Shown: positions 2,668 through 15,185, counted from the stretch's first letter. The stretch: DNA of 64,000 nt from a virus (IMGVR_UViG_3300031134_000001:160001-224000), one strand, 5' to 3'. The notes: a model not told the origin generated them from the letters alone. Numbers and translations: made by a program.

Positions 2668-3678
2668 ATGCAACTCGATTTGAACGCAACACAAGGCAAG
2701 CGGGTCCATGCGTCGGACAAACGCATGATCAATGCTACCACCGACGTCAACCAACTCGTACCGTTCAAGTACAAGTGGGCGTGGGACATGTATCTGGCAG
2801 CCTGCGAGAACCAGTGGATGCCAACTGAACACGACATGCGTGCTGATGCCGGTCAGTGGCAGTCGAGTGTTGTCAGCCAAGCTGATCGCTGCGCTGTGTC
2901 GCGCGCGCTGTACGCGTCGGTGTTCCAGTACGGTCAAGGCATGGACAGCATCGTCCTGGGCATCTATCGTCACCTTACGGCGCCTGAAGCGCGTCAGTAC
3001 CTGCTGCGTCAAAGCTTCGAAGAAGGTCTGTCCTCGCATGCGTTCTCTCACATCGTAGAAGCGCTGGGTGACATCCCTGAAGATACGATCGACCGTTCGA
3101 TCCGTAAAGACTACCTCGCGCCTTACCTGGCCGTGCTGTCCGATCCGAAGTACAAGACCGGCACGGTCGATACTGACCAAGCGTTGCTGCGCGCCCTCGC
3201 GGTGTACACCGTGACCATGAAAGGGTTGTTCCCGCTCGTGGACATTATCCAAGTGCTGGAACTGGGTCAGCGTGGCAAGATGGCGTCCGTGGCAGCTATG
3301 CACCGTCTGGAACTTCGGGACTTGACGATGCATTGCAATTTCGGTGTCGAAGTCATCAACGCCATCAAGACCGAGAACCCGCATCTCTGGACGCCTGCGC
3401 TGCGCGCTGAGCTGACCAACCTCATCACTCAGGCCGTCGATATCGAAGCGGCGTACATCGGTCAGATCTCGCCAGCAGACGACGCCAAGTACGCGATGTT
3501 CCTGCGCATCGTGGCCAACCGCCGCGCTAACCAAATCGGTCTGGACAACATCTATCCGAATCCTGGCAAGAATCCTTTCCCGTGGATCGGTGAACTGCTG
3601 GGTCTGCGCAAAGATGACGCCGGCTTCGAGGTGCGCGCCATGGAAACCAAAACCACAGAAACCCTGAGCTGGGACTAA
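2668..3678 (+). CDS. ribonucleotide reductase beta-subunit homologue, catalytically degenerate
   Basis: NQLVPFKYKWAW, WMPTE, EARQYLLRQSFEE, RDLTMHCNFG, NPFPW...LSWD match the Pseudomonas/Burkholderiales NrdB type; 4 of 6 metal ligands and both redox Tyr substituted. Confidence 0.9.
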   Translation: MQLDLNATQGKRVHASDKRMINATTDVNQLVPFKYKWAWDMYLAACENQWMPTEHDMRADAGQWQSSVVSQADRCAVSRALYASVFQYGQGMDSIVLGIYRHLTAPEARQYLLRQSFEEGLSSHAFSHIVEALGDIPEDTIDRSIRKDYLAPYLAVLSDPKYKTGTVDTDQALLRALAVYTVTMKGLFPLVDIIQVLELGQRGKMASVAAMHRLELRDLTMHCNFGVEVINAIKTENPHLWTPALRAELTNLITQAVDIEAAYIGQISPADDAKYAMFLRIVANRRANQIGLDNIYPNPGKNPFPWIGELLGLRKDDAGFEVRAMETKTTETLSWD

Positions 3679-7507: not shown

Positions 7508-8410
7508 ATGGCAGCCTACCAGATTCACACGATCCAGATGGCCAACCATCGCAAGTTGAAAGATGGGATGCATCTTCTGGACACGACTGCCAAATCGGGC
7601 GTTCCTGCGTTCGCTCCTGTCTTTTCAAATGTGATGGCTTATAAGGACGGTACGCTGTCTGAAGAAGAATACACCCGTCGCTATTTGGAGAAAATGGCGG
7701 CATCCCAAGTTACTTCCCCGAGTATCTGGGAAGAGCTGTTAGTGCATAAGCAAGTGGCTGTGGCATGTTACTGCACACCAGGCAAGTTCTGCCACCGGCA
7801 TTTGTTTGTGCCGATCATGAAAGAGTATCTGGAAGAACGCGGTCACACGGTTGAACTCATGGGGGAGTTAGGTGGCAAGCAGTATTGCAACCACATCCCA
7901 GAAGCGATCGTATCGATTCCGTTTGAGCGTAAGATCATTCCGTTTTACACACGCGACCATGTGCTGTCGAACCACGCCCCTATCGGCTTTACTGTCAAGG
8001 ACATCCATTTCAAGCATGGTGAGATGTTCCTGATGTACTGCAAGGCTGTGTTGATGGGCGACACGGAAACAGCCAACAAGATCCTGGTCACTGATAACCC
8101 ACAAGCGTGCAAGATGTTAGGCAAGCGCGTTAAGCCGTGGGATGAGCAAAAGTGGTTACTTAAGCGGCGCGGTATCAGTAACCGTTTGTGTTACGAGAAA
8201 GCGGTGCAAAACCCAGAGGTGGATGAATATCTCCTCGGCACCAATAACGATATTTTGGTGGAGGCCAGTCCCTCCGACCGCATCTGGGGTGTGGGTATTG
8301 CTGAGAACGATCCCCGTATCTTTGACGTTAACGAATGGCTGGGACTAAACCTATTGGGTGAGTCCTGGATGTGGGCTCGACGTAAGCGACAAGAAGATGT
8401 TATCTTTTGA
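7508..8410 (+). CDS. DUF488-like domain fused to NADAR domain
   Basis: N-terminal ACYCTPGKFCHRHL; C-terminal YCKAVLMGD, KMLGKRVKPWD, LVEASPSDRIWGVG, WLGLNLLG (NADAR signature). Confidence 0.88.
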   Translation: MAAYQIHTIQMANHRKLKDGMHLLDTTAKSGVPAFAPVFSNVMAYKDGTLSEEEYTRRYLEKMAASQVTSPSIWEELLVHKQVAVACYCTPGKFCHRHLFVPIMKEYLEERGHTVELMGELGGKQYCNHIPEAIVSIPFERKIIPFYTRDHVLSNHAPIGFTVKDIHFKHGEMFLMYCKAVLMGDTETANKILVTDNPQACKMLGKRVKPWDEQKWLLKRRGISNRLCYEKAVQNPEVDEYLLGTNNDILVEASPSDRIWGVGIAENDPRIFDVNEWLGLNLLGESWMWARRKRQEDVIF

Positions 8411-11137: not shown

Positions 11138-12697
11138 ATGAACTCCAATAACCAACAACAAGAACCAACCAAATACGTTTTCTCCATCGATGAGGACGGC
11201 GACATCAGCCCGCATGCAGTAAAGGCAGGCACCGCAGTGCCTGAAATCCCAGCCGGCGTTTATACGTTGGTGTATATCGAACCAATGCCTGGTCGCGGCC
11301 CGCAGCTCTATCTGCGCCCAGAAAAGAACTTCCAGATTCCAGAGCGCCTCTACGGCGACGTCAAGCTGAACGTCGATCGCTATCTGCGTTCGTACGAGAT
11401 GAACGACAAGAATCTGGGTGCGCTGTTCATCGGCGAACAAGGTTCGGGTAAAACCATGCAGCTCAAAGCACTGGCGGTGAAAGCTGTCGAGCTGAGCTAC
11501 CCTGTGATCCTGATCAACGAGGTGATTCCAGGTTCGCTCCTGAACTGGTTCCTCTCGACCATTGTTCAGCCTACGCTCGTGTGTTTCGACGAATTCGAGA
11601 AATCGTACGACACCCCCGATAAGCAACGCCCGATCCTGCAGCTGCTCGACGGCACCAACACGGGTAGCAAAAAGATGTACTGCTTCTCGGCCAACGAGCT
11701 CAAGAAGATCAGCCCGCACATGGTCAATCGCCCAAGCCGTATTCGCTATGTGCGCACGTTCCGTCGCCTGGAAATCTCCACGGTGGTGGACTACGTGCAA
11801 ACCAACCTCAAGAACTGTACGGAAGACCACGTCCGTGCGTTCATCCATCTGGCTCTGGCTGACGGTCTGGACGAAGATCGCAAGAACATGTCGAACGGCA
11901 TGAACTTCGACATGATGGCCGAATACGTGCGCGAGATGAACCAATTCCCTGGTTCGCTCAACGAGGTGCTTCACGTGATGGGGTTGAAAGGCAGCGATAC
12001 GTGGGCCCGCTTCGAAGTGAACGGCTTTGTCGACGGCGAGCGGGTGCATCATGCCATGGCGCACGGCACGCACAGCGGCGCCTACGCGGGTAGCGATGAA
12101 TGGTTGATCAACTTCAGTATCCATGTAGAAAAACTGCGTGAGAAAGCTACCGAAGATGAAGTCGACCGCTGGAAATGGGACTACGACAAAGTCGAGCTCA
12201 CCCAGCGCGATTTCAAGAGCTTTGGCGATTCGCATGATTCGCTGATCTTTGAGAAAGATGGCGTGGAATACCACCTGCGCTATATCGACTTCGAGAAATC
12301 GAACAAGCTGAAAATCAAAGTGGAGGAAACCAATTCGGGAAAGCGGCCCGCGCAGCAGCCAAAGACGGCGGCTCTGCGCGTGGAATCGGCCGCGGATTCA
12401 GTTTCCCCATGTCCCTCCCCCTTGACCACAGCTTCGTCTTCCCACTCAGCCTCTCCTTCGGAAGAATGTACCGTGAAGCCTTCGGAGACTACAAGCCAGA
12501 CGACTACGCCGATGGCGGAAATCCAAAAAACATCCGAGAATCCGACGCAAAAGGAATCGAGCAGTCAACCTCCGGAGGAAAAGAACTCGACACCGACACC
12601 AACGAGAAACTCTCTGAAGACGGTGATGATGACGACGATGACGACGAAAGAAAGCCCGAAGGATGCCTCGACTGGTCATGACCCAGATCAGTCGTAA
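11138..12697 (+). CDS. AAA+ ATPase paralogue 1 (0-frame product; possible -1 frameshift isoform ending 12681)
   Basis: Walker A GEQGSGKT, Walker B VCFDEFEK, sensor SAN, NRPSRIRY. Confidence 0.9.
   Translation: MNSNNQQQEPTKYVFSIDEDGDISPHAVKAGTAVPEIPAGVYTLVYIEPMPGRGPQLYLRPEKNFQIPERLYGDVKLNVDRYLRSYEMNDKNLGALFIGEQGSGKTMQLKALAVKAVELSYPVILINEVIPGSLLNWFLSTIVQPTLVCFDEFEKSYDTPDKQRPILQLLDGTNTGSKKMYCFSANELKKISPHMVNRPSRIRYVRTFRRLEISTVVDYVQTNLKNCTEDHVRAFIHLALADGLDEDRKNMSNGMNFDMMAEYVREMNQFPGSLNEVLHVMGLKGSDTWARFEVNGFVDGERVHHAMAHGTHSGAYAGSDEWLINFSIHVEKLREKATEDEVDRWKWDYDKVELTQRDFKSFGDSHDSLIFEKDGVEYHLRYIDFEKSNKLKIKVEETNSGKRPAQQPKTAALRVESAADSVSPCPSPLTTASSSHSASPSEECTVKPSETTSQTTTPMAEIQKTSENPTQKESSSQPPEEKNSTPTPTRNSLKTVMMTTMTTKESPKDASTGHDPDQS
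12337..12383 (+). promoter_or_regulatory. candidate -1 programmed frameshift cassette
   Basis: In-register G_GGA_AAG (12337-43), 5-nt spacer, stem CGCGCAG/CTGCGCG (12349-55/12374-80) plus AGCC/GGCT; -1 frame open to 12681. Confidence 0.6.
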
Positions 12698-12790
12698 TCG
12701 GCACTACTTGTAATACCATCTAAGCCCGCGCTACCAGAGGCGGGTCGTAATCTGTACTACCCATAACCAACAACTATTAAGGATAAGACC

Positions 12791-14227
12791 ATGAACATTC
12801 AAAAACAACAACGCGAAGAAGTCAAGTACGCTTTCGATATCGCAGACGACGGCGTGGTTCGTCCAATGCGTCGAGTGCGTTCGAACATGGTGGCTGAATT
12901 GCCACCGCGGGTATACCGCTTGGTTGTCGATCAGACTGGTCCGCATCTGGTGCCAGAAAACGACTTCAACATGCCGGCACGGGTGTACGGTACATCGAAC
13001 ACCTACGCGCAACGCTTTATCCGCGCATACGAGCTGGGTACCAAAAACCTCGGCGCGTTGCTGATCGGTTTGCCTGGTTCGGGTAAGACCTTGACGCTCA
13101 AGCACGTGGCCATGCTCGCGGTGCAAGCGATGATGCCGGCGATCATCGTCAACACGGCGATCTCCGGTCAGATCCTAACGCAATTCCTCTCGACCATCAC
13201 CCAGCAATGCGTGGTCTGCATGGATGAATTCGACAAGAAATACGGCGGCAAAGATTCGGACGGCGATTCGATCCCGCTGGAGATGCAAGACTCGATCCTG
13301 GAACTGCTCGATGGCGCGACCGTCGGCGAAAAGAAGATGTTCATTCTGACCGCCAACGACGACGGCAAGATCTCGCCTCTGCTCAAGGACCGTCCTAGCC
13401 GGATTCGCTACACGATCAAGTACGCGCAAATCGACCAGGACACCGTCATCGATTATGTCAGCTCCAACCTCAAGAACTGCACGGAGGATCATATCCGCGC
13501 TTTCCTGATGGTGGCCAACGCCGACCGCATGAGTCGCACCGGCATGAACTTCGATTCGATGGTCGAACTCGTGAACGAAATGAACTACTTCGAATGCTCG
13601 CTCGACGAAGCGCTCGAACTCATGCTGCGTAACGGCAAGGAATCCTTCACGTCATTTAATGTCAAGGTGTTCCGTGAAGGCGTGTGGATCGATACTTCAG
13701 CCGGCTTCGGTAGTCATAACGGCGTGTACATGACGAATGGTGACTACGTCCTCACCTTCCAAATGGTGGTGCCGTCGACGCAGGAGGATGTACCCGCCCA
13801 GCGTTACGAGGTGAGACTCACGGCTGATCATTTCGTCGGCTTCGCTGAAAGCCGTTCGGCCTTCGAGTTCAAACTCAATGAGTTCACGTTCATGCTCGAC
13901 ATGGTTGATCAAGCAACAGCCAGTCGAAATAGTACGGCTGCAAAGAACGCTTATGAACAGCGGCCTGACGTGATCGCATACAAAGAGCAGAAGCAAAAGG
14001 AGAAGGAGAAAGAAGCTGCTGAAAAGAACGCGGCAGAAAACGACGATGAAGATGATGGTCTGAAAATCCGTCGTCCGCGGATGTTCGGCATGGATCTGGA
14101 GGCCATGGGCATGGGTCGTCACCATTTGACTAGCCTTATCCGCGATTACGGGACCGAGGTGTCTTCCGATCTGTTGCCGCCGGCGATGAATTTCGGCGCG
14201 CCCGACCCTGACGACAAAGCATCATAA
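12791..14227 (+). CDS. AAA+ ATPase paralogue 2
   Basis: GLPGSGKT, VCMDEFDK, LTAN, DRPSRIRY; VIDYVSSNLKNCTEDHIRAF closely matches paralogue 1. Confidence 0.9.
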   Translation: MNIQKQQREEVKYAFDIADDGVVRPMRRVRSNMVAELPPRVYRLVVDQTGPHLVPENDFNMPARVYGTSNTYAQRFIRAYELGTKNLGALLIGLPGSGKTLTLKHVAMLAVQAMMPAIIVNTAISGQILTQFLSTITQQCVVCMDEFDKKYGGKDSDGDSIPLEMQDSILELLDGATVGEKKMFILTANDDGKISPLLKDRPSRIRYTIKYAQIDQDTVIDYVSSNLKNCTEDHIRAFLMVANADRMSRTGMNFDSMVELVNEMNYFECSLDEALELMLRNGKESFTSFNVKVFREGVWIDTSAGFGSHNGVYMTNGDYVLTFQMVVPSTQEDVPAQRYEVRLTADHFVGFAESRSAFEFKLNEFTFMLDMVDQATASRNSTAAKNAYEQRPDVIAYKEQKQKEKEKEAAEKNAAENDDEDDGLKIRRPRMFGMDLEAMGMGRHHLTSLIRDYGTEVSSDLLPPAMNFGAPDPDDKAS

Positions 14228-14297
14228 CACCACCTAGACCCGCGCTAATATAGGCGGGTCTGGTCGTTACTTCATAACTAACAACAAAGGTACTATC

Positions 14298-15185
14298 ATG
14301 AAAGCTAAAGAAGTGTACTGCGGGATGATTCAGTTCTTCACCCGTACTTTCGATAAACTCGATTTCAGCGTACGTCGTCAAACGACCGTGCGTCCACTAC
14401 ACGATCCTGAGGTCAAGGCCGTGGGCAATGCCGAGCTGGAAGACATGGCGACTGCTTTGCTCAACGCAGCGCACGCGTCCGGCCAAACCATCACGATCGA
14501 AAGCAAAAGCGTGGCCCCATACGGCATGGGTGGTTATGCGCCTCAAGTGAAGATTCATCCGAACTACGCCAGCGTGCGCGCCGCGATGGATGCGTTACAA
14601 GCGCGCCGGGACGGCACCGCCAAGCCACCAGCCCAATTGAAGTACGATCCAGAGCATCTGCCACAACCGCTCAAGGCACGCTTGATCCCATGGCCAGACG
14701 CTGACGAAGAACTGCAAGACGCCTTAAGTCGCGACCCACGTCATCTGCCACACCACGTGTTGGTGCGTCTGGTGAAAGAATACGACCGCCGCCTGATGCA
14801 GATGTGGGACAAGGTCGGCTTCGAACGCCAACACAATCTGGTATCGGATTTCCAAAACTCCGTTCCGGCTAAGCTGCGCGAAAAAGACAGCCCGTCAGCA
14901 GATCCGACCAGTAAACCAATCACGGTGTCGTACAGTACCAGCGTTGGTGATCTGTCAAAGATGTTATCGCTCACATCTCAGCAGCTCATCCAGAGAATGA
15001 TCTCGCTGAAAATGCGCCAGTGCACAATCAGCAATCGGCTGTCTTTTGATGAAATCAAGAAGATAGCGCTTTCTTTCGGGTATATCTCTCGCCTCGAAAC
15101 CGAATACGCAATGGAACTGGTGCGCACTTCAGACGCAGTAAACGGAGGCACCGCAGCGAAGGAAGACCATGCATCCGGAACTTAA
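14298..15185 (+). CDS. hypothetical protein
   Basis: AACTAACAACAAAGG leader. Confidence 0.75.
   Translation: MKAKEVYCGMIQFFTRTFDKLDFSVRRQTTVRPLHDPEVKAVGNAELEDMATALLNAAHASGQTITIESKSVAPYGMGGYAPQVKIHPNYASVRAAMDALQARRDGTAKPPAQLKYDPEHLPQPLKARLIPWPDADEELQDALSRDPRHLPHHVLVRLVKEYDRRLMQMWDKVGFERQHNLVSDFQNSVPAKLREKDSPSADPTSKPITVSYSTSVGDLSKMLSLTSQQLIQRMISLKMRQCTISNRLSFDEIKKIALSFGYISRLETEYAMELVRTSDAVNGGTAAKEDHASGT

Follow-up and report, generated by a model that had tools for sequence, protein, structure and literature searches.

A conserved putative -1 frameshift cassette with two alternative C-terminal tails in an AAA ATPase gene of an uncultured jumbo phage

We analyzed a stretch of viral DNA of 64,000 nucleotides (nt), IMGVR_UViG_3300031134_000001:160001-224000, hereafter called the window, with positions counted from its first letter. 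An AAA ATPase gene situated at 11138..12697 (+) carries, at the end of the part that codes for the folded protein, a set of signals characteristic of a programmed -1 ribosomal frameshift. The window has a GC content of 52.5%. It covers bases 160001-224000 of a virus record that is 271,026 bp long and has direct terminal repeats, and the same genome codes for a major capsid protein of the phiKZ type. Therefore, the source is an uncultured jumbo phage. In a search of sequencing runs for the stretch, no RNA run was found to carry it, and it was most closely represented in phyllosphere and straw metagenomes.

The 0-frame product of the open reading frame (ORF), designated P0001, has 519 amino acids (aa), with a folded body at residues ~8-400 and a tail at residues 403-519. 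It matched the 'ATPase' family phrog_2376 with E = 1.6e-59, while the match to PF00004 was marginal, 22.2 bits against the cut-off of 21.2, compared to 43.4 bits for P0002, a paralogue encoded next to it. The residues of Walker A, GxxGxGKT (G99, G102, S103, G104, K105, T106), and of Walker B, hhhhDE (D151, E152), were invariant across 16 sequences. An AlphaFold2 (AF2) model, also built on 16 sequences, was confident from about residue 8 to residue 400, a region made of an N-terminal beta domain, an AAA module with lid, a C-terminal beta domain and a last helix at 385-400; for residues 402-519 the predicted local distance difference test score was ~35.

The best Foldseek matches of P0001 were Bcs1, FtsH, the proteasomal ATPases (Rpt/Mpa) and Cdc48, with E-values from 1e-9 to 1e-6. 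All of these are classic-clade AAA rings that remodel proteins. By these comparisons P0001 is a classic-clade AAA ATPase (PF00004), presumably of the ring type. No Pfam or PHROG family that would indicate orthology to the clamp loader (DNA polymerase III tau/gamma) was assigned to P0001, and a weak clamp-loader match (6.6e-05) was seen in the paralogue P0002 only. When the gene was compared with GenBank phages, blastn gave no match and tblastn gave only relatives with less than 35% identity, over the ATPase body.

The slippery heptamer G_GGA_AAG is located at 12337..12343 (+), in register with the 0 frame: the codons TCG GGA AAG occupy 12335-12343, and the last two of them code for Gly401-Lys402. 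The slip site thus falls at residue 402, just where the confident part of the AF2 model ends. An internal Shine-Dalgarno (SD)-like box, GGAGG, is situated at 12322..12326 (+), 10 nt 5' of the heptamer, which is also the spacing of the SD-like stimulator in E. coli dnaX. This box forms the strongest anti-SD duplex of the gene (-9.3 kcal/mol), equalled at 0 same-phase positions. On the 3' side, a spacer of 5 nt (12344-12348, +) is followed by a stem-loop at 12349..12380 (+) with 11 bp (7+4), one bulged base and a 9-nt loop. Its folding energy was -18.3 kcal/mol (z = -2.97; 2 of 200 shuffles folded as well), and an equally strong hairpin at that offset was found for 1.7% of same-phase positions in the gene.

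Downstream of the heptamer, the -1 frame (12343..12681, +) is open for 112 codons and is closed by TGA at 12679-12681. The predicted trans-frame product would have 402+112 = 514 aa, with the residues ...ETNSGK joined to AARAAAK at the junction. Among ~340 same-phase positions in the gene body, none had a -1 run as long as 112 codons. The 0-frame tail (12344..12697, +) has 117 codons followed by TAA; it is Ser/Thr/Pro-rich, contains zero aromatic residues and is predicted to be disordered. A preliminary description of this DNA had given the same in-register heptamer, spacer, 11-bp hairpin and ends of the two frames, and our coordinates, fold and ORFs agree with it; the SD-like GGAGG box is an element of the cassette that was absent from that description.

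Two overlapping open frames could have a trivial origin, with only one of the tails being real and the change of frame coming from an assembly or sequencing indel or from transcriptional slippage. The window does come from a metagenome assembly, and its -1 tail looks more protein-like than its 0-frame tail (poly-Asp versus MMTTMTT). However, about a dozen independently assembled sequences show the arrangement again, and no indel at the site is seen in contigs from other samples that cross it. Two strains from other samples, L016 and L017, fall into the same 90%-identity protein cluster as P0001 (L016 is 98% identical). In both strains, the SD box, the heptamer and the hairpin are unchanged, the only indels are of 3 or 12 bases, and neither frame is interrupted; their -1 tails have 112 and 108 codons.

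Logan contigs from two further samples also span the site without an indel, the gaps in the overlap being of net 0 or 3 bases, and among the Logan contig differences listed there was none between 12320 and 12394. No extra base fusing the frames, an outcome that the preliminary description had allowed for, was seen in the strains or in the independent contigs. Because about a dozen independent assemblies as well as the related strains keep the arrangement, a sequencing or assembly indel is excluded on these comparisons. Several orthologues, moreover, have 0-frame tails with a conserved C-terminal motif, described below, and the homopolymer runs in GGGAAAG are too short for polymerase slippage; runs of 9 A or T are cited for transcriptional slippage in the review PMC5009743. 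We give this whole explanation next to no chance of being right.

In a protein search, we found homologues of 41-61% identity, the nearest of which all read '...x-G-K' at the site and then diverge. Orthologue DNA was obtained for 13 homologues, from independent assemblies; scans of IMG/VR returned two related contigs only, and the single metagenome scan returned one unrelated AAA gene. The orthologues form a well-supported clade (n = 13) with 48-61% identity between lineages. Conservation in related phages had been proposed as a check in the preliminary description, and we observed that the heptamer is kept base for base in 12 of the 13 clade members (the window and the loci L003, L007, L008 and L010-L017). 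The genes that bear the cassette group as a clade with 100/100 support.

This conservation goes beyond the coded dipeptide. The residue before the glycine varies among the 12 genes (S, M, E, A, L, R, K, P), while the third base of its codon is always G. GGA is an avoided glycine codon in the cassette genes, with a share of 1-10% per gene. In the codon alignment of nine lineages, GGA was found at 9 of 9 slip sites, compared to only 4 of 126 codons at 14 other invariant glycine columns; AAG was likewise found at 9 of 9 slip sites, compared to mixed AAA and AAG at six other invariant lysine columns. With the codon usage of each gene taken as the background, finding the heptamer in 10 loci had a joint probability of ~1e-21, a figure to be read with the lineages behind the codon statistics not being fully independent. 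The protein path lengths are about 1 change per site, and therefore the synonymous sites are saturated.

An SD-like box (GGAGG, GAGGAGG, AGGAGG, AAGGAG or CAGGAG) was present in all 10 cassette lineages examined, 9-16 nt and mostly 10-11 nt upstream of the heptamer. Ranked within its own gene, the box was the strongest in 5 of the 10 loci and had p <= 0.024 in 4 more; in L010 the value was p = 0.17.

Two genes without the heptamer serve as natural controls. L009, which is nested inside the cassette clade, has A_GGT_AAG, no SD (-0.5 kcal/mol) and a -1 frame shut after 8 codons. The outgroup L018 codes for Gly-Lys as G_GGC_AAG, again with no SD, and its -1 frame is shut after 1 codon. The three elements of the cassette (heptamer, SD box, open -1 frame) are thus gained and lost together, and we see their common absence from L009 and L018 as the strongest argument that the three features act jointly.

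These data also bear on the possibility that no slipping occurs and that GGAGG-N10-GGGAAAG is kept for another reason, be it a translational pause at the boundary of the domain, a protein-binding site in RNA or DNA, or a Gly-Lys pair combined with codon preference. L009 and L018 do still code for Gly-Lys, not every orthologue has the hairpin, and the frameshift product is a predicted one. On the other hand, the conserved bases are exactly those of the in-register slippery heptamer, down to the wobble base of the variable preceding codon and the avoided glycine codon, and loss of the heptamer is accompanied by loss of the SD box and closure of the -1 frame in both controls; an Rfam search matched no relevant family. 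We consider retention without slipping quite improbable.

A separate start for the -1 ORF was another candidate. In the window, no ATG, GTG or TTG is present among the 28 codons of the -1 frame that are open upstream of the site, and the first ATG in this frame lies 24 codons downstream of the site, with no SD. The -1 tails of seven orthologues (L003, L008 and L010-L014) have no start codon at all. Since start codons are missing, these tails are reachable only by a change of frame, and independent initiation was rejected.

With respect to codon usage, the gene body had log-odds of +0.35 in the 0 frame, -0.60 in the -1 frame and -0.74 in the +1 frame, while in the tail region the values were -0.02, +0.003 and -1.0, respectively, a pattern as expected if both frames are read. 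Third codon positions are C in 53% of cases in the -1 tail of the window versus 18% in the 0 frame, in line with the C-ending codons noted in the preliminary description. The -1 tail of the window is Gly/Arg-, aromatic- and Asp-rich and ends with ...LDWS. Its likeness to the tails of the paralogues, also claimed earlier, did not go beyond composition: BLASTP of either tail against the tail of P0002 gave E = 1.2-2.8. Both tails are disordered and fast-evolving.

The poly-Asp stretch at window positions 12612-12648, rich in GAT and GAC, draws many unrelated metagenome contigs, with a depth of up to 177x in one run. This high depth is a low-complexity artefact of read placement and not a measure of abundance.

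Several observations weigh against a functional frameshift, and some of them concern its signals. The downstream hairpin is not conserved: it is unusual in the window, L008 and L015 (p ~0.01-0.02) and weaker, of borderline significance, in L012 and L013; L003, L007 and L014 have none that stands out. Elsewhere in the genome, too, G_GGA_AAG occurs in register within a few long open frames. Other observations concern the -1 peptide. Pairwise conservation of the tails is weak, with p < 0.05 in 5 of 28 and 3 of 28 pairs for the two frames, compared to 1 of 28 cross-frame controls, and it does not decide which frame is functional. Substitutions between close strains in the overlap fit the neutral expectation in both frames, and the lengths of the -1 tails outside the window phage (14-61 codons) are not above chance. 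Given chance-level lengths, poor tail conservation and neutral-like substitutions, the -1 peptide may matter little.

One could accordingly suppose that slipping does occur but that the -1 peptide is filler, selection acting on a fixed fraction of subunits without the 0-frame tail or on a reduced amount of the full-length form. The gamma protein, which lacks the domains specific to tau, is a parallel for such subunits. Apart from the poor conservation, neutral-like change and mostly chance-level lengths just given (the -1 tail has only 14 codons in L010), the ends of the 0-frame tails speak for the filler explanation. In L003, L012, L013 and L014, of one subclade, these tails end with ...(S)YGTNG, and the tail of L009 has the related end ...SYGT. 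The ending ...GTNG also terminates paralogues that have no frameshift, namely P0129 and the only protein of the family in the relative G001. With this conserved end, also found in non-frameshifting paralogues, the 0-frame tail is real too and probably the older of the two; it looks like the functional tail of the ancestor.

Conversely, several features of the -1 tails are not those of filler. The frame is kept open for 108-112 codons in the three strains of the window phage. In L015, the 0 frame is already closed 5 codons past the site and the -1 frame alone continues, for 37 codons, leaving a tail in the -1 product only. Aromatic residues make up 12.4% of the -1 tails; the same bases read in the 0 frame give 1.8%, and the gene bodies read in the -1 frame give 4.5% (p = 0.004 and 0.01).

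Furthermore, the -1 tail ends in Trp or Tyr in 5 of 9 lineages (LDW in L016, LEW in L003, NPW and SPW in L012 and L013, LKW in L015, and APY in L007), whereas the null rate is 7% (p = 2e-4; p ~2e-3 without the window lineage, which is counted here through strain L016, ending in W, as the window itself ends in WS). In L003 and in L012/L013 the terminal TGG-TAA overlaps the conserved 0-frame Gly-Asn, and these cases of a C-terminal Trp are not clean. Still, both the aromatic content and the C-terminal residue stand well above what a -1 reading of these genes yields and point to selection on the -1 peptide as deduced from the DNA. We regard the filler explanation as unlikely.

The aromatic ends are of interest with respect to the wider family. 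Among its C-termini, 82 of 189 (43%) end in F, Y or W, with F in 62 of them, and a frequent ending is ...[FY]-N-[FW]-D-A-F (e.g., ...F-N-F-D-A-F), with Ala or Leu at -2. This aromatic C-terminus of the phrog_2376 family looks like a docking peptide; we know of no earlier description of it. The 0-frame tails of the frameshift clade have no aromatic C-terminus, except in L008. A 'GRG + aromatic' motif was tried as a feature common to the -1 tails and the in-frame tails of relatives and was rejected (7 observed versus 3.5 in shuffles, among 148 family members).

Taken together, the signals and their register, conservation beyond coding need, joint loss of the elements and position at a domain boundary lead us to interpret the site as a functional programmed -1 frameshift of the bacterial dnaX-like type, with a probability of roughly 0.77. 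The proposal of the preliminary description, a -1 cassette giving two alternative C-terminal tails, thereby gains strong comparative support from the heptamer in the orthologues, the SD box and the joint loss. Its further reading of the two as substrate-specificity tails finds no support in these data. We infer the mechanism, that is, the slipping, its frequency and the roles of the tails. According to the review PMC5009743, G_GGA_AAG is highly prone to shifting in E. coli, and SD stimulators on the 5' side are a major feature of the -1 shifts of dnaX and of many insertion sequences (IS).

The frameshift would proceed as follows. On reaching G_GGA_AAG in the ATPase mRNA, a translating ribosome would have its P site occupied by Gly-tRNA and its A site by Lys-tRNA, while the anti-SD of its 16S rRNA would pair with the GGAGG 10 nt behind and, in the window phage, the GC-rich hairpin 5 nt ahead would resist unwinding. 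In a fraction of ribosomes, both tRNAs would re-pair one base back, on GGG AAA, and reading would go on in the -1 frame. The two predicted proteins would have the entire folded body in common (N-domain, AAA module, C-terminal beta-domain and helix 385-400) and would differ in the disordered tail only, the Ser/Thr/Pro-rich 117 aa in the form of 519 aa and the 112 aa of the -1 frame in the form of 514 aa.

By analogy with tau and gamma, frameshifting may set the ratio of the two tails within the ATPase ring, and the -1 tail may supply an aromatic C-terminal docking peptide of the family type. A more specific version, in which the -1 tail is an overprint born with the cassette at the base of the clade and carries an aromatic docking motif absent from the 0-frame tail, is tentative, and we hold it to be possible rather than probable. 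If it were true, the efficiency of frameshifting would set the number of ring subunits able to dock to a partner. Translation of a single gene would then fix the stoichiometry of the docking tails, a situation that recalls the unequal HbYX tails of proteasomal ATPases.

The closest known system in mechanism appears to be dnaX tau/gamma, the likeness being one of analogy and not of descent. Frameshifting in dnaX fixes the tau:gamma ratio. In dnaX, as in the phage gene, the product is an AAA+ subunit of a ring or spiral assembly, the slip site follows the ATPase body, and the N-terminal body is common to both isoforms; the signal likewise has three parts, an SD-like box on the 5' side, an X_XXA_AAG heptamer and, shortly after it, a stem-loop (PMC5009743). 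The differences are, however, substantial. The dnaX heptamer is A_AAA_AAG and its -1 frame stops after one codon, compared to G_GGA_AAG and a tail of 14-112 aa here; the alternative parts are folded domains in dnaX and disordered tails here; and dnaX codes for a clamp loader, while the phage gene is of the classic clade (Bcs1/FtsH/proteasome-like) and has a hairpin that varies across its orthologues.

The G/GT genes of lambda have the same heptamer, G_GGA_AAG, in a phage gene whose products share an N-terminal part and differ at the C-terminus. The lambda protein is a small structural-assembly protein with the 0 frame ending just past the site, whereas here the gene codes for a non-structural enzyme and both frames run for tens of codons in most orthologues. 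We know of no SD stimulator described for lambda G/GT. The ATPase gene is homologous neither to dnaX nor to lambda G/GT.

A third comparison is with orfA/orfAB of the IS3 family, where heptamers of the X_XXA_AAG type often have a 5' SD stimulator and a 3' structure; there, two functional ORFs are fused into the transposase, in contrast to the exchange of terminal tails here. A 5' SD stimulator is estimated to be present in 56% of IS elements, according to PMC5009743.

Beyond the frameshift gene, the window codes for other ATPases. The neighbouring paralogue P0002 (12791..14227, +; 478 aa) is 42% identical to P0001, has no frameshift site and belongs to a separate well-supported clade. In the corresponding region of strain L016 (L016:2001-4548, cf. 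window 11138-15185), the ATPase gene is directly followed by an IF2_N-domain gene, and the 478-aa paralogue is absent; therefore, this paralogue is dispensable or was recently gained or lost. A third AAA ATPase, more distant and 7 kb downstream (21014-22102, +; 362 aa; PF00004 with E = 8.4e-10; phrog_14322), was not retrieved by the P0001 search of the genome; it is probably the third paralogue meant in the preliminary description.

The other in-register copies of G_GGA_AAG are located at genome positions 229302 (+), 231045 (+), 13602 (+) and 163581 (-), the last being window position 3581 on the minus strand. Each lies in a long open frame (132-451 aa between stops), and the -1 runs are short, with 7-32 codons. 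ARAGORN detected a cluster of seven tRNA genes (Tyr, Ser, Gln, Asn, His, Thr, Leu) at window positions 30730-34837. Since tRNA-Lys and tRNA-Gly are not among them, neither slip-site tRNA is supplied by the phage within the window. We also observed a free-standing NADAR gene at 7508-8410 (+), whose 300-aa product has DUF488-N3a followed by NADAR (PF08719, E = 1.9e-34), and a 561-aa ORF at 22603-24288 (+), for which neither Pfam nor PHROG nor a tblastn search of GenBank phages gave a match at the thresholds applied.

The well-studied frameshifts of phages are in structural genes, such as those of tail chaperones and capsid proteins. The site described here would be a conserved recoding site in a gene for a non-structural enzyme of jumbo phages, with the full dnaX-type set of signals, and its long alternative tails in both frames set it apart from dnaX and lambda G/GT. 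All database homologues are annotated in the 0 frame only, the site having been missed by gene callers, and our literature search turned up no description of frameshifting in an AAA ATPase of a phage.

The clade provides a natural experiment, with 12 cassette genes to be set against two relatives that lost, or never had, all of the parts. It would also be an example of a long dual-coding overlap, of ~110 codons in the window phage, in which one of the frames seems to be a young, fast-evolving overprint. For the abundant phrog_2376 family of phage ATPases, the finding points to the C-terminal tails as the part that may be regulated.

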